Shown: positions 12,352-21,283 of the stretch, in pieces
How the letters are laid out: each line of letters begins with the position of its first letter
Position numbering within the stretch: the first letter of the stretch is position 1
Sequence record: NC_047742.1
Source of the DNA: Enterobacteria phage IME_EC2
Reading direction: 5' to 3' (one strand)
DNA length: 41,510 nt
Translations under genes and position numbers: made by a program
The notes under the pieces: generated by a model
The model's input: only the letters and a program-made list of their open reading frames with translations
Database searches by the model: none
Told to the model about the DNA's origin: nothing

Positions 12352-12903
12352 ATGGCATCACGCGGCGTTAACAAGGTGATTCTGGTCGGCAATCTGGGCC
12401 AGGATCCCGAAGTGCGTTATATGCCGTCGGGTGGAGCGGTGGCGAACATTACGATCGCCACCTCTGAATCCTGGCGCGACAAGCAGACGGGCGAACAGAA
12501 AGAACAGACGGAATGGCATCGCGTCGTATTGTTCGGCAAGCTGGCGGAGGTCGCCGGGGAGTATCTGCGCAAGGGTTCACAGGTTTACATTGAGGGCCAG
12601 CTTAGGACGCGCAAATGGACGGACCAAAGCGGCGCGGAGAAGTACACGACGGAGGTCGTCGTGAACGTCGGCGGCACTATGCAAATGCTCGGCGGGAAGA
12701 AAGAGGGAGGCCAGTCTGGGGGGAATGGACCTACCCACTCCGGCGGCGGTGGCAATTCTCGCAATTCTCCGGGCCGTGGCGCGTCTAATTCGCAAAATCC
12801 GGGCAAGGGTAGCGGGTCGGGTCCTGCGTCGTCTGGAGGCGCTTCTGGGGCCTCTAATGGCGGGGAGCCTCCGATGGACTTTGACGACGATATACCGTTT
12901 TAA
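12352..12903 (+). CDS. ssb: single-stranded DNA-binding protein
   Basis: OB-fold SSB N-terminus ([36 protein letters not shown]), Gly-rich linker, acidic tail DDDIPF. Confidence 0.9.
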
Positions 12904-13967: not shown

Positions 13968-13994
13968 AAGGGGCCAATTAAGGCCCCTTTTTTT
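13968..13994. terminator. bidirectional intrinsic terminator (GGGGCC-AATTAA-GGCCCC + T7)
   Basis: Hairpin with T-run on plus side and U-rich on minus side, at convergence of the plus-strand operon and tailspike gene. Confidence 0.7.
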
Positions 13995-16233
13995 ATGCCG
14001 GAGTTCGGAAGGAGATCGGCTTCGTTGCCGCCAGTTGAACGCCCGCCACGGTTGCCGTCACGATAGCGTCCGCAATGTCGATCCTGATCTCTGCGGTCGG
14101 GTTGCTTGGGTTGGTGCTGTACGGTGCGCGAGTGATCACCGTGTTAAGCGGAGCGCCGCCAGCCCCGGCTCCGGGGATCGTGACGCGGGTCCCCTGCGTA
14201 AGCGGGGTCTTATAAAACCAGACCTGATCCGACTTGTTGCCAGCCATCGCGTAATTTTGCGCGAGGTAGGTCTGGCCCGCTGCCGTCGCTTTAATCTGCA
14301 ATTCTGCGACCGCCGGGAGGTATGCGCCGGACGTCTCGACGGCAAAGATCTTGCCATCGTTGCGGACCAGGAGATCGCCCTCCATGAACTCGCGCCCGGT
14401 CGGGAACGCGTTACCATCCCAGATCCCTACGCCGTCCATCTGGTCAGGAGTCGGGATCAGGTAAGTATGGTTAGAGGGCTGCATTTCAGCGCCTACGCCG
14501 CCGTTAGTCCCCGAACGAGGGTACGGACGGGCGAACACGTTCGAATTAACGCAATCAATCTGGCTGTATGCGCAACGGCTCCAGCCCTGATCCGGGTACG
14601 CGCCGAAGTTAACATTATTCATGCGTAACACGGTGCGACCGCCAGCGATATAACCATTCGAAGGCGTCCCGCCGCTGGAATCATCCCCGATCGCGTCGAA
14701 GATATCGCCGGAGATATCGTTTAAATCCAGTTCGGTAGCCACGCCGAAAACGGAGAATTTAGCCACGTTGATGTTACTGAATCGGCAACGGTTGGTTGCT
14801 CCGGCCTTTTCCGTACCCACGCCAGCGTAAAAGCGCCCGGTCTTGGAATAGACGTTCCTCACGGTCATGTCCTGGCAAGGACCACGAGCGCCCACTCCGG
14901 CGTTAGTCCCCCACTCCAGCATAACCACGCGGACGTCGGAGGCCAGGGTCCCGGAGGTCACGATCGGCTCCCCGCGAACGCCATCGATCGACACGCGGCG
15001 CGAGCCATAACAGAGGACCGTCGCCAGCGTCAGGCCGGAGCCGTTAGACACGTTCTGATCCGGGTCGCCGTTGATGTTCTCGATCACGGAGTCGCGGACC
15101 ATTTCGAAGTGAACAAGCTGGCGGACGCCGACGCCCGTCACGTTGCGGATCGTGATGTTCTTCGCAAAGTTCTCGTCAGGCGTGTCGATACCATACGGAG
15201 ATTGACCAGCGACGCCGATCCCGATCCCCCAGTTGGACGGGTTGATCGGAGCCTGTCCGGTGGAGTCGATGTTCTCCAGGTAGATATTTTCGATCACGCA
15301 ACCGTCGTCATAGTGGCGCTGCACCACGTTAAGCTCGATCCCGTCGCCGCCCATGTCGTAAAACGACAAGTTACGATACAGGCCACGCGTGACGAGTTCC
15401 CCGGTCCCCTGCTGCAAGATGCCGTAAAGGCCATTGCGGAACTCGCTCTCCGTGACTTCCACAGTCGCGTTTTTCGGTAGGGCTTGCATCATTACGCTTG
15501 CGACCTTGCTCGTGGTCGGCTTGCCGTCAAACAGGCAATCCCGGATCCTTACGTCGCCGCCCCATACGCGAATACGGGCGTTTTTAATGGTCGCGCCTTT
15601 CAGCGTGGAATTGTCCATGAAAAAGTCCGGCGTACCTTTCCACGTTCCCCCCATGATGAGGATATCCGTCGCGGTCACGTTGCCGTCCAGCGTTCCCTCC
15701 CAGCCAATGGCCCAGACCGCCAGCTTTTGGGCCTGAGCCGTGTCAAACATGGTCTGGATGGCTGCGGACACGCTGGTGAATGGCGCTTTCCCGACGAACT
15801 GAAAAGGAGTGATCCAGCCCTGAATCGACTCTTTCAAAACGCCGTAATTCGTCCCCACGTACTCCCAGCCCGTCGGCGAGGTGAGAAGGTTCCACATCTG
15901 GACCGGATCATATTTGAACAGGTTCCCGAAATAGAATTGCTGGACGTCGTTCGCGTCCATCACCTTCATGGATGATTCGATCTTGGTGATCAGTTTGACT
16001 ACTTGACCGTTCCAGACCGGATAGCCGGAGACGTTGGTCCGTACTGGCTGCGGGATTGGCGTCAGCGTTCCGTCCTCGTCCTCGACAAAGACCTGGGTCT
16101 GGTTCGCTGGGTTCAGCGGGTCGGTATCTTTCACGCCTACGTAGATCTTCCCGTTGACCAGCGCCGCGAAGCGGTCCAGACGTAGGAAAGGCGTCGAAGG
16201 CATACCAATATCAGCGTATACGTCGCGGGCCAT
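13993..16233 (-). CDS. tailspike protein (P22-type N-terminal head-binding domain, distinct beta-helix receptor-binding domain)
   Basis: N-terminus ALVNGKIYVGVKDTDPLNPANQTQVFVEDEDG aligns with P22 gp9 [32 protein letters not shown]; remainder unlike P22; trimmed to ATG (MARDV) with GGAGAA SD. Confidence 0.85.
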   Translation of the reverse strand: MARDVYADIGMPSTPFLRLDRFAALVNGKIYVGVKDTDPLNPANQTQVFVEDEDGTLTPIPQPVRTNVSGYPVWNGQVVKLITKIESSMKVMDANDVQQFYFGNLFKYDPVQMWNLLTSPTGWEYVGTNYGVLKESIQGWITPFQFVGKAPFTSVSAAIQTMFDTAQAQKLAVWAIGWEGTLDGNVTATDILIMGGTWKGTPDFFMDNSTLKGATIKNARIRVWGGDVRIRDCLFDGKPTTSKVASVMMQALPKNATVEVTESEFRNGLYGILQQGTGELVTRGLYRNLSFYDMGGDGIELNVVQRHYDDGCVIENIYLENIDSTGQAPINPSNWGIGIGVAGQSPYGIDTPDENFAKNITIRNVTGVGVRQLVHFEMVRDSVIENINGDPDQNVSNGSGLTLATVLCYGSRRVSIDGVRGEPIVTSGTLASDVRVVMLEWGTNAGVGARGPCQDMTVRNVYSKTGRFYAGVGTEKAGATNRCRFSNINVAKFSVFGVATELDLNDISGDIFDAIGDDSSGGTPSNGYIAGGRTVLRMNNVNFGAYPDQGWSRCAYSQIDCVNSNVFARPYPRSGTNGGVGAEMQPSNHTYLIPTPDQMDGVGIWDGNAFPTGREFMEGDLLVRNDGKIFAVETSGAYLPAVAELQIKATAAGQTYLAQNYAMAGNKSDQVWFYKTPLTQGTRVTIPGAGAGGAPLNTVITRAPYSTNPSNPTAEIRIDIADAIVTATVAGVQLAATKPISFRTPA

Positions 16234-16272
16234 TGTGTTCTCCATGAGAAAGGGGGCTTATCGCCCCCGTTG

Positions 16273-19200
16273 TTATTGTTGCTGCTGGTCGCTTGCTGCC
16301 GCTTGCCCGCCAGTACCGGAAAGGAATCCGACGATCCCGGCGCGGTTAATGGCTGCTTTCTCCTCCGGGGTCATGGCCTCGATCAAGGCTTTCCACTCCG
16401 GCGAGTTTGCCGCCGCTTCCTCGGCCTCTCGGACGAACGTCCGGCCCGCTGGGGTCAGCTTCCCGGAACTCTGCGCGGCTGCGGCTTGTAACAGTTTATT
16501 GAAGTTTTCACCAGAAAGCACGTTGTCCGCAAGAACAGATCGCGGAACACGAGTCGCTCGCCCTGCTGCCTGAGCCGCTGCGAGCGCTGCATTACCCGCC
16601 GGGCCTAACGTGTAGAGCGCTGCGGCATGTTTACCCAGCCAGCCCGCCGCGCCGTATAGCTTCGACATAACGCCACCAGCGCCCGGATCGTCGAATCGCT
16701 TCACGAAGTCGGAGATCGATCCCGTCGTCGTGGTAAAGCGTTTCGCCCGGTCGATCCCGTTCGCCACGCGGTAGATCTGCATGAGGCGCTGGCGCTGCTG
16801 GCGCGGTAGGTGCTGCATGACGTTTCCTAACGTCCCGTTAGCCTGGGCGGTCTTGTACCAGTCCACGAAGCCGGGGATCGCGAAGGTATCGCGGGCGCTA
16901 CGTGCGCCCAGGGTACGCTCCAGCGCGTTAGCCACTACGTCGGACTTGAGGCTGTCCGGGGTTGCGGCCATCAGCTTGTCCCAGTCCCTCGCGCTGCCGC
17001 CCTTCTTGCCCAGGTTCAGGATCGCACTCTGCACTTTCCCGGTGATCGAGTTGTCGAGGTTTTTCCCCAGGACTTCGAGGGCCTGAGTCTCCAGGTCCTT
17101 ACGGCGTTTAACAAGCTGTTTCCCCACATTCCAGTCGTCCGCCGCGCCATACTGGGCCGCGACTCGCTCCTGGTCGTCAGTCAGGCGGGCATAAAGCTGT
17201 TTAAGCTGCGCCGGGACTTCATCCTTAAACGGGCCGTTTTTCTTGTTCAGCGCCTCGCCGACCTGCTTCCGAAGGGTGTCCAGTCGGGCGTAAGTCGGGA
17301 TCGTCGAAACACTCTGATCAGGGAGTCCCGTCACTGGGTCCACCTTCCCAGGCTTCGGAGCCATCCAGTCGAGCGCCTTTTTCTCTGCTGCGGAAAGGTA
17401 CTCGTCCCCGCCTAACTCGTCAGCCTTCGCCGTCAGATAATCCACGGTGCTGTCCGGCCTTACTTCGGCGTTGCGGGGGATCTTGGCGCTCACGGCGTTA
17501 TAAGCCTTTTCCGCCTCGTCGCCCAGGCCGTCGATAATGGCGCGGGTACGGGCGGCAAACGCCTGATCGATGGTCTGCGCGTTCATGCTGGTCATGCTGT
17601 CGATCAGCTCGTCGGCCTTCTCACCTAAGCGAGAGATCCCGTTAATCTGCTGAGTTTCCAGGTTGGAACTTTTCCGGCTTACAAGCTGCTGGAGCGTGGT
17701 CCTAAACTGCGTATCACGCGCATAAGCCGCCGGGGTCAGTTGATCCTCCATCCCCAGATCGCGGGCGGTTTTCATCAGCTTTTTGTCCACGTCCGCCATG
17801 TTCGCGAGGTCGATCATCTCGTCAGAAGCGCGGAGGGTTTCACCGTTCGCGCCCTGTACGGTCTGATCTGGCGTCAGTCGGAACTTGCTCGCATCACGAG
17901 CCACAGCGTCGGAGATTCCCGCCTCGGTCGCCTGGGTGGATCGGGTTGCGTCCGCTGCTGCGTCTGCTGCGCCACCTGCGGCCCCCTCGCCGCCCCTGAG
18001 CGCATTCCACAGCCTACCAGCGCCACCGATAACAGCGCGGCCCACAGCCTCGCCAGCGGGCGCTAGTGCGATATTCGTCAGCGTCTCCTCCGGGTCCCCA
18101 CGACCAGCGGCGATCGCGCCCGGCACAGCACGAGCCGCCGGAGCCGCGATCCAGTTCTGGGTCATATCGGCGAGACGGGTCGCGAAGCTGGTCGCGTCCG
18201 GCGCTTCACGAACCAGTCCGAGGAGTTCGGTCGCCGCCTGAGCCTTACGCGGGCCAGGTAGCGGCGCGAGCATATCGCCGATCAGGGTCCCGATCTGCGC
18301 GTATTTGTCAGTAGGGGCCAGACCAGGGATCCCCCCAGGCGTGATGGTTGGCGCTTGGGTGCTTTCATCCACCAGCCCGACGCCCTTCCCGGCATCGGTC
18401 ACGGCTTGGGAGATCATGTTCGCCAGGGAGATCGGCGTGTTCAGCAGGTCGATCCCCGTCTGAGCCACGCCGCGAGCGCCCTGATCCAGCGAGTGGAGGA
18501 CGGTCTGGCCTAACTTTTCCCAGTTTCGGGCGGCTTCTTCGTTTGGATCGGTTTGTCCGGGCTGATTAGCTCCGCCCTGCTCTCCGTTACCGTTCGGCGC
18601 TGCCGCCCCTTGTGCGCCATCAGATCCCGCTTGATTAAGTGCATTGCCAGCGGAGACGGCTGGGACTTGTTGATCGGCTCCGGTTGCTCCGGCTCCGTCT
18701 GCGGCTGCTGGTGCCTGGTAGTCTCCGAACTGGTCGAAAACATTACCGCCAGCGCTCGGAGATCGTGCGCTGGTTGCGTATTGAGTAGGTTCGCCGCTGC
18801 CATCGCTGCCAGCGCCTCGCCCAGTCCATTGATTAAACCGATCATCCACATATTGACGCCCCTCCGGGCCTGGGGTTGCCTGGCCCGCCAGTTGTTTGTC
18901 TACGTTGCCGGGGCCGTCGTGGTAAGCCTGGAGAGCCGTCCCCCAATCTCCGTAGCGCTGATACATGCGGGAAAGATACTGCGCCCCCGCGTCCGCTTGC
19001 ATTGCCGGATCCTGCGCCAGTTGCGCCGGGTCGTAGCCCATATCGCGGGCCGTTCCCGGCATCACCTGAGTAAGCCCCATTGCGCCCTTGCTGGAGGTCG
19101 CAGTGGGATCGCCGCTGGATTCTTTACCCATTAACTGAGTCATGAGGCCAGCAGGGATCCCCCACTTGGCCCCGGCGCTCTCCACCAGATCAGCATAACC

Positions 19201-19296
19201 TCCGCCAGTGGATCCCGCTTGCTGCGGGATCTGATTTGGGAGCGCTTCCGCACTTTCCGGCATATTCTGATCAAACTGGTCGAAGATGTTCGCCAT
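16273..19296 (-). CDS. internal virion/ejection protein (gp16 position) with N-terminal lytic transglycosylase (SLT) domain
   Basis: SLT motifs GKESSGDP...KGAMGLTQVMP...ALQAYHDGPGNV; 1007 aa, Ala/Gly-rich; last gene before tailspike. Confidence 0.7.
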   Translation of the reverse strand: MANIFDQFDQNMPESAEALPNQIPQQAGSTGGGYADLVESAGAKWGIPAGLMTQLMGKESSGDPTATSSKGAMGLTQVMPGTARDMGYDPAQLAQDPAMQADAGAQYLSRMYQRYGDWGTALQAYHDGPGNVDKQLAGQATPGPEGRQYVDDRFNQWTGRGAGSDGSGEPTQYATSARSPSAGGNVFDQFGDYQAPAAADGAGATGADQQVPAVSAGNALNQAGSDGAQGAAAPNGNGEQGGANQPGQTDPNEEAARNWEKLGQTVLHSLDQGARGVAQTGIDLLNTPISLANMISQAVTDAGKGVGLVDESTQAPTITPGGIPGLAPTDKYAQIGTLIGDMLAPLPGPRKAQAATELLGLVREAPDATSFATRLADMTQNWIAAPAARAVPGAIAAGRGDPEETLTNIALAPAGEAVGRAVIGGAGRLWNALRGGEGAAGGAADAAADATRSTQATEAGISDAVARDASKFRLTPDQTVQGANGETLRASDEMIDLANMADVDKKLMKTARDLGMEDQLTPAAYARDTQFRTTLQQLVSRKSSNLETQQINGISRLGEKADELIDSMTSMNAQTIDQAFAARTRAIIDGLGDEAEKAYNAVSAKIPRNAEVRPDSTVDYLTAKADELGGDEYLSAAEKKALDWMAPKPGKVDPVTGLPDQSVSTIPTYARLDTLRKQVGEALNKKNGPFKDEVPAQLKQLYARLTDDQERVAAQYGAADDWNVGKQLVKRRKDLETQALEVLGKNLDNSITGKVQSAILNLGKKGGSARDWDKLMAATPDSLKSDVVANALERTLGARSARDTFAIPGFVDWYKTAQANGTLGNVMQHLPRQQRQRLMQIYRVANGIDRAKRFTTTTGSISDFVKRFDDPGAGGVMSKLYGAAGWLGKHAAALYTLGPAGNAALAAAQAAGRATRVPRSVLADNVLSGENFNKLLQAAAAQSSGKLTPAGRTFVREAEEAAANSPEWKALIEAMTPEEKAAINRAGIVGFLSGTGGQAAASDQQQQ

Positions 19297-20621
19297 TTAT
19301 AGCCCCTCCGGTAGAAAACCGTATTTTTCCTGAAATTGAGCCTTAACGCTAGGGGTAGGGTTCTGCATCAGGTAATTAATCGCGGCTTGCGCGTTCTGCT
19401 GCGGAATCCCCCCAGCGCTGAGGCGTCCGACGGCTTCCTGTTTCGCGTCGTCCTGCTTGATCTCGCGACGGTAGGACTCCACGCGCCCGCCCTGCGACTT
19501 CTCGATCGCGTCCTTGCCCTTGCTGAGTGCGTTCACGTAGCGCGTCATAACGTCCTTAAGCTGCTGCTCGCTCATGGTGCGCGGGTCTGCGTTGATCAGC
19601 GCCTGAGCGGCTGCGCGGCCCTCCTGCTCGGTCACTGGACCAGTACCACGCAAAGACTGAATACCCGCGACGCGGGCCTGGTCTTTAAGCTGGTTAAACT
19701 GGTTCATGATCTCCGCCGTGGCATCGCCGCCACCAGTAACCCACGACGCGCCCCTGTTAATCGCGCCCAGGTTGCCCGTCACGTAGGCCAGATCCTTACG
19801 CTGGAGGAGTCGCTGGGCCTGATCGATCGCCGTGGTGATCGGGGCGAGTTGCGTCTCGTAGGTCTGGAGAAAATCGCGCTTCGTGTTGAGGCTGTCGGCT
19901 TGCATTTTTGCTGCTGCTGCACGTACTTCTGTCGCTCAATATCGTTCTTTTCCTGCGCGATCCTCGTGTTGAGTCGCTCGGTCTGGAGTCCGATATATTT
20001 CAGATTTCGGTCTGCCGCGTTGCTCGCTGCGGTGACGTCCTGCCCCCTGATTACGGTCTGGTTCTTCATGTACTCTTTCGCGTAGTCCAGTTGGTCCTTG
20101 CTGGTATTGCTCGCCAGGTGGAGCGCCTGGACTGAGCGCTTGAACGCTTCCGGGTCCTGCGCTGCCGCCTGGTAGGCCACCTGCGGATCGATTCCCAGCG
20201 CCTGGAGCGCCGGGGCGTTCTGCTGGACGAATTGCTGGGCCATCTTCGGCCCCTGCGAGATCGCGACGTCGGCCTGGCTTGCAAGCTGGGATCCCTGCTG
20301 GCGTCGAATATCATCCACCAGTCCGAGGCGCTTCTGGAGCGCTTCGATCTGGGTAGGGTATTTGTAGGCCAGTTCGGAGATCTTGGACGGGTCGCCCGCT
20401 GCTGCTTGCCAGTCCTGATTGAACTGGGCCATTTGCGCCTGATTAGCTTGCGCCGCCTGAGTGGCGAGGCCCTGCTGGCGGTTCGCGATCTGCTGCGCCG
20501 TGTTGTTCTGAATCTGCCCGATATTGGCGAGGGTGTTAGTCCCCGCCGCCTGGATGTTCTGGAGGTTGTTCCACAGATCGCCCGGATCTGCGCCACCGCC
20601 ACCGCCTAGTAATTGCGCCAT
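19297..20621 (-). CDS. ejection protein (gp20 position), reading frame interrupted near 19905-19912
   Basis: Two ORFs (19779..20621 and 19297..19905) overlap in different frames; both Gln/Ala-rich; the upstream ORF becomes junk-like after an A5 run where the downstream frame opens. Confidence 0.45.
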
Positions 20622-21283
20622 TAGATCATGCTCCCGAACATGCCGCCGAACATGGACGTAAACGTGTTAGCGTCCTGCGCTGCGCCTTGTGCCATTTGAT
20701 TGTTAGCCGTTGCTGCGGTATTCCACGGCAAGGCCGCTTTTTGTCCCAGGATCTGGCCCTTCTGGCCCGCGAGTGCGGTCAGTGCGTTGGTGGTCCCGGT
20801 AGCCGCTGCGGACTGAGCGCCAGCGCCAGATAAGCCGACGTTAGTCAGGCCCAAAAGCTGGTTAAACATGTCTTGCTGCTGCGCTTGCATCGCGTTCAGA
20901 TAGTTCTGGCCCAGCGTAGGCGCGATCGACGCGAGGCTGTTCTGGGTAGCCGTGGATCCGAGTCCGCCCGTCGCTTCTGCGCTGGCAAGCTGGGAACGTC
21001 GAGCCGCTTCCTCGTTCATGGCGAACTCCTGCCCGCCGTAGTAGTCGGAAAGTAGCTGCTCGCGGTCAATCGGCTGGCCCGCGATCGCAGTCAGGCCGGG
21101 GATAGCGTTCGTCCCTGCCTCACGGAACGGGCTTAACCATTCCGCTTGTTGCGCCTGGAGTTCGCGCTGGTAGTCCATCTGTTTATCGGTCGCTTTCTGC
21201 TGCTGCTTGAGCGCCTTCCTCGTACCGATCCCGCCTAAAACGGACGAGACGGCCCCACCGATCCCGCTAATTGCTCCGCCCAT
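20621..21283 (-). CDS. ejection protein (gp7 position), Gly/Ala/Gln-rich
   Basis: Gly-rich N-terminus and Q/A-rich body; assigned by position in P22 gene order. Confidence 0.5.
   Translation of the reverse strand: MGGAISGIGGAVSSVLGGIGTRKALKQQQKATDKQMDYQRELQAQQAEWLSPFREAGTNAIPGLTAIAGQPIDREQLLSDYYGGQEFAMNEEAARRSQLASAEATGGLGSTATQNSLASIAPTLGQNYLNAMQAQQQDMFNQLLGLTNVGLSGAGAQSAAATGTTNALTALAGQKGQILGQKAALPWNTAATANNQMAQGAAQDANTFTSMFGGMFGSMI

Follow-up and report, generated by a model that had tools for sequence, protein, structure and literature searches.

The window analysed here is the whole 41,510-nucleotide (nt) stretch of record NC_047742.1, which equals the full 41,510-bp genome of Enterobacteria phage IME_EC2, the type species of Murrayvirus, which is a group of high-GC podoviruses with Sortsnevirus and Skarprettervirus as relatives (PMC7552041). 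Positions 16273-19296 are occupied by one long open reading frame (ORF) on the minus strand, which starts with ATG and encodes 1007 amino acids (aa) plus a stop according to the ORF list and its translation. A GGAGG Shine-Dalgarno sequence is located 8 nt upstream of this ATG. The original prediction, made from the letters of the window, had placed a 1007-aa ORF at 16273-19296; the ORF is real, and its strand is corrected here to minus. A plus-strand reading of the same interval was rejected because its translation is full of stops. The protein is 100% identical to AGZ17817.1 and YP_009784225.1 of IME_EC2, which are publicly named 'transglycosylase' and 'DNA transfer protein', respectively. 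Because it matches phrog_770 and its gene lies after gp7-like and gp20-like genes and before a tailspike gene, sequence comparison identifies it as a P22 gp16-family ejection protein carrying a T7-gp16-like N-terminal lytic module. As such the protein is ordinary, and its annotation as a transglycosylase or DNA transfer protein is already public; the only element beyond public annotation is a repeated motif in its N-terminal part. The features of the locus are as follows.

16273..19296, minus strand: complete coding sequence of the third ejection (E) protein, with a P22 gp16-family body and an N-terminal lytic-transglycosylase module.
19267..19290, minus strand: motif copy 1, NIFDQFDQ (aa 3-10), which stands right at the N-terminus within a leader (aa 1-32) predicted to be disordered.
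18817..19200, minus strand: folded lytic-transglycosylase domain (aa 33-160), from Pfam, AlphaFold2 (AF2), Foldseek and invariant columns.
18880-19188, minus strand: Pfam SLT match (PF01464, aa 37-139).
19120..19122, minus strand: codon of the predicted catalytic glutamate E59 (E-S motif), aligned to Slt70 E478 and T7 gp16 E37.
18721..18744, minus strand: motif copy 2, NVFDQFGD (aa 185-192), inside the disordered linker.
18511..18816, minus strand: disordered Gly/Ala/Gln/Asn/Pro-rich linker (aa 161-262), with a predicted local distance difference test score (pLDDT) of 23-40, carrying motif copy 2.
16276..18510, minus strand: P22 gp16-like body (aa 263-1007), from BLASTP, phrog_770 and AF2.
19297..20621, minus strand: gp20-like (tube) ejection-protein gene, the proposed partner, matching phrog_2534/917 and split in this record.
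19300-19383, minus strand: gp20-like C-terminal tail ..AINYLMQNPTPSVKAQFQEKYGFLPEGL, which abuts the ejection-protein start codon in the same reading frame.

That virions can carry lytic transglycosylases has been textbook knowledge since T7 gp16, whose lytic activity is required only in some conditions. The original prediction had read SLT motifs in the N-terminal part of the IME_EC2 protein and had proposed a domain search as a check. This search found PF01464 (SLT, GH23 family-1) at aa 37-139 with E=6e-23 and 81.1 bits, compared with a gathering cutoff of 21.3 bits. The catalytic-glutamate context, which had been named as the point on which the reading could fail in an alignment with SLT members, is present and invariant. 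Specifically, E59-S60 aligns with the catalytic E478-S479 of E. coli Slt70 and with E37-S38 of T7 gp16, in which E37 has been named catalytic (PMC8954989). The G-L-x-Q-(V/I)-M and A-Y-N/H-x-G-x-G motifs are present as GLTQVM (aa 74-79) and AYHDGPGN (aa 124-131), and E59, Q77, V78, A124, Y125, G128 and N131 are invariant in 48 homologues (down to 26% identity). Additionally, a family-specific conserved extension, PGPEGRQYVDDRF, follows the Pfam SLT match at aa 142-154.

The AF2 model gave aa 33-160 a pLDDT of ~90 and, together with Foldseek, a lysozyme-like alpha-helical fold. Foldseek against the PDB returned only lytic transglycosylases, namely MltD, Slt, MltE, MltF and T7 gp16-N (7k5c_B), with a probability of 1.00 and with E-values of ~1e-2 that are inflated by the 1007-aa query. 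The PDB sequence matches of the SLT domain were Slt70, MltC and MltE, and the NCBIfam equivalog scores were all far under their cutoffs. The catalytic fold and motifs are those of Slt70, MltC, MltD and MltE/EmtA, but these are housekeeping periplasmic or lipoprotein enzymes, whereas the IME_EC2 domain makes up 125 of the 1007 aa of a virion protein. Judged from its residues, the SLT active site is intact, and the protein is very probably an ejection protein with a functional lytic-transglycosylase domain. By analogy with T7 gp16, the domain would most likely cut glycan strands locally and let the conduit cross the murein; local peptidoglycan cutting upon injection is also the function to be expected from homology to T7 gp16 and P22 gp16 (PMC8954989).

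The rest of the protein belongs with P22 gp16. The phrog_770 profile (P22 gp16 family) was matched by aa 139-958 over profile positions 3-667 of 668 with E=1.5e-118, while P22 gp16 itself, the archetype, scores 2.3e-266. The gene is the third of a gp7-gp20-gp16 operon located between needle/gp14-like genes and the tailspike gene, as expected for this family, and the 'gp16 position' assigned in the original prediction is right in P22 gene order (gp7-like, gp20-like, ejection gene, tailspike). BLASTP aligned aa 263-405 with P22 gp16 aa 65-196 (E=2e-4), and pairwise identity to P22 gp16 was undetectable by BLAST outside this segment. P22 gp16 thus has the PHROG 770 family, the gene position and one similar segment in common with the IME_EC2 protein, but it is 609 aa long, has no SLT domain and no N-x-F-x-Q-F motif, and starts with MKVTANGKTFNFPDGTS.

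The likeness to T7 gp16 (internal virion protein D; PDB 7K5C, 7EYB) is of another kind. Both proteins carry a family-1 lytic transglycosylase in their N-terminal part, and E37 of T7 and E59 here are the equivalent catalytic Glu residues. However, phrog_342 (the T7 gp16 family) was matched only by aa 32-264, over profile positions 13-227 of 1235, and the PDB profile search reached T7 gp16 over its residues 9-138 only. Homology does not extend across the whole ~1300 aa of that family: the first ~150-260 residues are related, the N-terminal module alone is in common, and the remaining ~750 residues here are of a different family. Within the body, AF2 was confident of one all-helical domain (aa 502-870), which is followed by a helical C-terminal part, but gave low confidence to the Ala/Gly-rich stretch at aa 313-501; the disordered linker spans aa 162-300 in the model (pLDDT ~25), and G/A/Q/N/P/S/T make up 75% of the linker residues. 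Outside the SLT domain, sequence-profile and Foldseek searches found no PDB relatives of the body. A P22-gp16-family ejection protein can carry a T7-style lytic module, a function that a recent review calls absent from P22-like phages; IME_EC2 and its relatives are exceptions to that statement, as are true members of Lederbergvirus, Sf101 among them, and databases already annotate them so.

Regarding the repeated motif, the original prediction had set NIFDQFDQ at residues 3-10, where it is, and NVFDQFGD around residue 180; the second copy in fact occupies aa 185-192. In a blind search of the non-SLT N-terminal parts, the best self-similar 7-mer was ANIFDQF/GNVFDQF; of 300 composition-preserving shuffles, only 1 scored as high. 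A six-frame translation of the window (41.5 kb) contains the pattern N-x-F-[ADEGS]-[QK]-[FY] just twice, and this protein holds both occurrences. Both copies have a pLDDT below 40 in the full-length AF2 model (33-37 for aa 1-30, the leader with copy 1), and their surroundings are disordered and otherwise unconserved.

We propose that the protein would be the largest of three internal ejection proteins in a podovirus with a P22-like virion module and would be packaged in the head. Presumably it is ejected: it would be expelled through the tail at infection and, jointly with its gp7-like and gp20-like companions, would help to build a trans-envelope DNA conduit. The body (aa ~263-1007) would represent a divergent P22 gp16 in which the P22-type N-terminal peptide was replaced by a leader with copy 1, the SLT domain and a linker with copy 2. 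The two copies (consensus N-Phi-F-[DA]-[QK]-[FY]) may act as short linear docking peptides that fold upon binding, with MANIFDQFDQNMP and GGNVFDQFGDYQ as the candidate peptides toward the gp20-like protein. Docking would take place at equivalent positions of the periplasmic tube that the gp20-like oligomer forms, probably in the C-terminal region or tail of the gp20-like protein, and would clamp the enzyme 'wing' to the tube, in the manner of the loop and tip of T7 gp16-N on two adjacent gp15 subunits. We consider it highly probable that the motif is a functional, selected peptide element. The choice of the gp20-like protein as its partner is put forward tentatively and with slightly more doubt than trust. 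For the explanation as a whole, a gp16-type ejection protein with a lytic-transglycosylase module and paired docking motifs, the chances appear about even.

Homologues from 88% to ~30% identity were read directly. The motif pair was the best internal repeat (7-mers, non-SLT regions) in nearly all homologue lineages, and copy 1 is kept as MAN[IVFMP]F.. in lineages down to ~35% identity, while the leader and linker around the motifs are not alignable among homologues. On this evidence the motif is old and not a product of chance. The variants were as follows.

IME_EC2 group: copy 1 NIFDQF or NVFDQF; copy 2 NVFDQF.
IME279 group: copy 1 NFFDQF; copy 2 NFFDQF.
Skarpretter group: copy 1 NVFDQF; copy 2 NVFDQF.
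C130_2 group: copy 1 NFAATFG; copy 2 KFASQFG; the aromatics of either copy stand one residue further apart.
Metagenomic clade: copy 1 NMFAQF; copy 2 NMFGDF.
Metagenomic clade: copy 1 NMFAKY; copy 2 NMFGQY.
Metagenomic clade: copy 1 NMFAEY; copy 2 NLFAEY.
Metagenomic clade: copy 1 NPFAQF; copy 2 NPFAQF.
Sf101-type prophages: DPNNPFAQLE and DPNNPFAQIE, both after SLT.
Serratia-type prophages: GPWEKYQ and GPWTKYQ, both before SLT, plus QPWAQQ after it.

The two copies change in step between lineages. The mean BLOSUM similarity of copies was 30.0 within a protein and 10.2 between proteins, and 0 of 20000 permutations reached the observed value. The copies of IME_EC2, KMB41 and IME279 differ at synonymous sites, and the lineage-specific Phe of IME279 is encoded by TTC in one copy and by TTT in the other. 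These synonymous differences and the parallel Phe by different codons make selection on the peptide a likelier explanation than recent copying of DNA. In IME_EC2, the copies have only 11 nt in common (TTCGACCAGTT) and differ at synonymous sites, and an origin of the motif in a long DNA repeat or a recent duplication was therefore also rejected.

These data bear on the possibility of a repeat without a specific partner. It would be the remnant of a duplication whose copies gene conversion keeps alike, or else a latch that packs within the molecule, on SLT or the body. The 19 identical nt between the Skarpretter copies would fit such a repeat, and slippage can make linker repeats, with TAGAGGA and RTGYQPP repeats occurring in some homologues. 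We regard this explanation as improbable, since the motif stands at the same two positions from 88% to ~35% overall identity within an unalignable linker, and three genomes show synonymous differences, including a parallel substitution by different codons. Moreover, intramolecular docking is unsupported by the full-length AF2 monomer, which docks neither copy on SLT or body and leaves both below a pLDDT of 40.

The order of motifs and enzyme bears on whether the motifs are protease sites that free the SLT enzyme from the ejection protein. The copies flank SLT in this phage, and a record note states that a host protease processes P22 gp7, but the flanking is not conserved, as both copies follow SLT in the Sf101 type and two precede it in the Serratia type, and the P22-like module encodes no prohead protease; a cleavage function is very improbable.

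Colicin translocation domains have a similar layout of short binding boxes in disordered regions. The motifs might likewise bind a host envelope component (peptidoglycan, Tol-Pal, TonB or a porin) and thereby place or import the enzyme in the periplasm, and aromatic motifs do lie here in Gly/Ala/Gln/Asn-rich disordered arms beside a periplasm-acting enzyme. However, phages plating on the same host, E. coli K-12, carry different variants, namely NIF/NVF, NFF and, with altered spacing, NFAATF. Differing variants on one host are better explained by a phage partner that co-evolves than by a host target that is fixed, and a lineage-specific coordinated change in both copies is not what a fixed host pocket predicts. 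No match to a TolB, TolA or TonB box was noticed by eye, with no dedicated search run. Binding to the host envelope is thus an unlikely role for the motifs.

The link to the gp20-like protein was examined in 158 viral loci (IMG/VR, L015-L172) with SLT-type or P22-type gp16 relatives. For each locus, the last part of the gp20-like gene was read together with the first part of the gp16-like gene downstream of it. The two genes abut in the collected loci, with a gap of 0-1 nt, and in the window the gp20-like stop and the ejection-protein start are contiguous in frame (..YGFLPEGL, stop, MANIFDQF..). The type of the gp16 N-terminal module pairs one-to-one with the type of the gp20 C-terminal tail in all loci where both were found (154 of 154), in six types.

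gp16 N-module MKVTANGKTFTFPDG (P22 type, no SLT): gp20 tail ..SYTSKSGIQFTVE.
gp16 N-module MAKAWKDVI.. (no SLT): gp20 tail ..SLWGD.
gp16 N-module of SLT and two copies of DPNNPFAQ (Sf101 type): gp20 tail ..IDYLKQHPELSxDFINRYGYLP...
gp16 N-module of MAN[IVF]FDQF, SLT and GN[VF]FDQFG (the type of the window): gp20 tail ..AINYLMQNPTPSVKxQFxEKYGFLPEGL.
gp16 N-module of two copies of GPWxKYQ and SLT (Serratia type): gp20 tail ..GGYTFLGGDPSNPNSWRKN.
gp16 N-module of the NMFAKY type: gp20 tail ..DWAEAFPGTQPPQPGDF.

P22 itself pairs the gp20 tail ..SKSGIQFTVE with MKVTANGKTFTFPDG. In the P22 type, a conserved gp20 tail of ~12 residues stands behind several unrelated low-complexity linkers, and gp20-like tails in general often sit behind a variable Q/N/S/P-rich linker. 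For P0058, which combines a P22-like N-terminal peptide with SLT, a P22-type gp20 tail was rejected: its tail is ..AVSWGSLK, a seventh type. Among Sf101-type loci, gp20 tail and N-module remain associated, with identities of 72-95% and 71-94%, respectively, even where the gp16 bodies are only 24-32% identical. Tail and N-module thus behave, in these sequences, like a cassette that straddles the gene boundary. Shigella phage Sf101 (Lederbergvirus) offers a close comparison outside the type of the window. Its gp13 also combines SLT, a disordered linker with two motif copies and a gp16 body, and its gp20 ends with ..YGYLP.. versus ..YGFLPEGL here. Unlike the IME_EC2 protein, Sf101 gp13 begins with SLT from residue 1 without a leader, carries tandem copies after the domain, 24 aa apart, and has a true P22-type body; the two proteins are 32-35% identical overall.

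Genetic data on P22 concern the same boundary. P22 hybrids with only gene 16 or only gene 20 of Sf6 are non-viable, whereas hybrids with both are viable, and therefore gp16 and gp20 must interact as cognate pairs; the last 33 aa of P22 gp20 are essential, and Sf6 gp16 is still packaged in the non-viable P22 hybrid (PMC10883804). Such foreign gp16 is packaged but non-functional without cognate gp20, and therefore the type-specific parts matter after assembly. This result bears on the idea that the motifs are head-incorporation signals that bind scaffolding protein, portal or coat and have no role after ejection. E-proteins do need recruitment into procapsids, for which tags typically take the form of short peptides in disordered termini, and copy 1 is always at the extreme N-terminus. 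Against this idea, foreign gp16 (22-26% identical) assembles into P22 particles and fails without cognate gp20 (PMC10883804), P22 gp16 lacks the motif although its coat/portal module is related, and the motif type follows the gp20 tail type. We therefore assign little probability to a function restricted to packaging.

Returning to docking, the data can be extended to a broader model, which we offer as a doubtful but possible generalization. P22-like ejectosomes might be held together by exchangeable 'adapter cassettes' across the gene 20/gene 16 boundary, each with a gp20 tail type and a matching gp16 N-module, in at least six to seven types. In the SLT types, paired co-evolving aromatic motifs would dock the lytic wing on two equivalent sites of the gp20 oligomer. 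Such cassettes would be the basis of the P22/Sf6 cognate requirement and a counterpart of the T7 tape.

In T7, this 'molecular tape' consists of a ~50-residue loop and a tip (aa 157-228) of gp16, which run along two adjacent gp15 subunits and drive folding of the gp15 C-terminal domains (PMC8954989; bioRxiv 10.1101/2021.01.04.424714). T7 gp16 and the IME_EC2 protein both have an extended segment behind the lytic-transglycosylase domain; that of T7 is the part which binds the tube protein gp15. The gp15-contact residues K204 and D209 of T7 gp16 fall within KPFAKDFW, an element kept in T7-like phages as N-x-P-F-[AGS]-x-x-[FY]-W; a two-copy repeat is not evident in T7 gp16. The IME_EC2 protein has a disordered segment with an aromatic motif after its lytic-transglycosylase domain, analogous to the T7 tape without significant homology. 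In addition, the T7 N-terminus MDKYDKNVP aligns with DQFDQNMP here, within a significant BLAST alignment and in hhalign. In coliphage K1F gp16 (L013), SLT is replaced by a different N-terminal domain with NNPGNIR, and the tape segment is kept, including PNESFGEMFY; therefore, the tape is separable from the enzyme in T7-like phages.

Several observations weigh against the docking explanation. First, the perfect co-inheritance of gp20 tail and gp16 N-module could reflect physical linkage of abutting DNA alone, which recombination seldom separates whether or not the products interact. Likewise, an old gene conversion with later drift at synonymous sites could have made the two copies co-vary, the 19 nt in common between the Skarpretter copies being a case in point. 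Second, the layout of the copies varies, with both after SLT in the Sf101 type and two before SLT in the Serratia type, and P0058 has an SLT module without such a repeat. Third, the resemblances to the T7 tape are leads, with homology not statistically established: hhalign pairs copy 2 with T7 LETFGG instead of KPFAKDFW, without a reported confidence, and the spacing differs from that of KPFAKDFW.

AF2 was also run on an in-frame read-through of the C-terminal 194 aa of gp20 and aa 1-290 of gp16. The gp20 part formed a confident helical domain (pLDDT 75-93), and no confident motif docking was obtained, with copy 1 at pLDDT 58 falling to 39-41 and copy 2 at ~30; this read-through is a weak docking test that speaks neither for binding nor against it, as it used a monomeric gp20 fragment, gp16-side homologues only in the alignment and a zero-length linker. 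A homologue search with the gp20-like C-terminal ORF returned nothing. Furthermore, putative transmembrane or membrane-active segments near the C-terminus have been claimed for all gp16-like proteins (PMC8954989). In the IME_EC2 protein, the Kyte-Doolittle values peak at 1.07 (aa 409-427) and 0.87 (aa 890-908), both in weakly hydrophobic Ala/Gly-rich stretches; no segment of the full protein is hydrophobic enough for a transmembrane helix on this scale, and the full-length monomer model reveals nothing on membrane insertion. If the docking model is true, four aromatic residues (F5, F8, F187 and F190) and one C-terminal tail are the places to mutate. The co-varying motif pair and its strict tie to the gp20-like tail would then provide a mutable handle on gp16-gp20 recognition during assembly of the P22-type conduit.

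The neighbourhood of the gene in the window and in close relatives follows the P22-like order: coat, gp4-like adaptor, gp10-like, needle, gp14-position ORF, gp7-like, gp20-like, ejection gene and tailspike. The gp7-like ORF (20621-21283) belongs to phrog_598 (P22 gp7 family), and the tailspike (colanidase) ORF at 13993-16245 is next after the ejection gene. The gp20-like gene, an essential one, is present as two overlapping ORFs, 19779-20621 (280 aa) and 19297-19905 (202 aa). Alignment located the cause of this split as one missing base near 19912 (CAGCAGC-AGCAAAAA), and the gene is a single ORF of ~440 aa in KMB41, IME279 and the ~99% identical phage sortsyn. A sequencing error in this record is the probable reason for the split, with a genuine frameshift as the other possibility.

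Compared with phage sortsyn, the ejection protein is 99-100% identical over aa 1-558 and 50-78% identical in an internal patch (aa ~560-760, window ~17000-17620). A second divergent patch of 80% identity (aa ~860-910, window ~16570-16720) is followed by a return to 99-100%. The patches represent intragenic mosaicism within the helical body domain. A recombination boundary at aa ~285 relative to sortsyn was rejected as an artefact, because the sortsyn record is linearised inside the gene. In the RefSeq record of Escherichia phage Sortsne (NC_048178, 9001-12048), the orthologue is broken up into a 738-aa 'DNA transfer protein', two small hypothetical proteins and a gap without annotation. Because tblastn aligns aa 1-992 to this region in one piece, the broken orthologue is likely an annotation or sequence problem of that record.

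Among the P22-type relatives, homologues P0057-P0120 carry a precomputed Pfam match to PF26808, while the IME_EC2 protein is without it on record. Elsewhere in the window, a 36-nt segment inside the SSB gene (12865-12900) is 97% identical to the SSB region of the unrelated large Salmonella phages PVPSE1 and SSE121, as an isolated short match.

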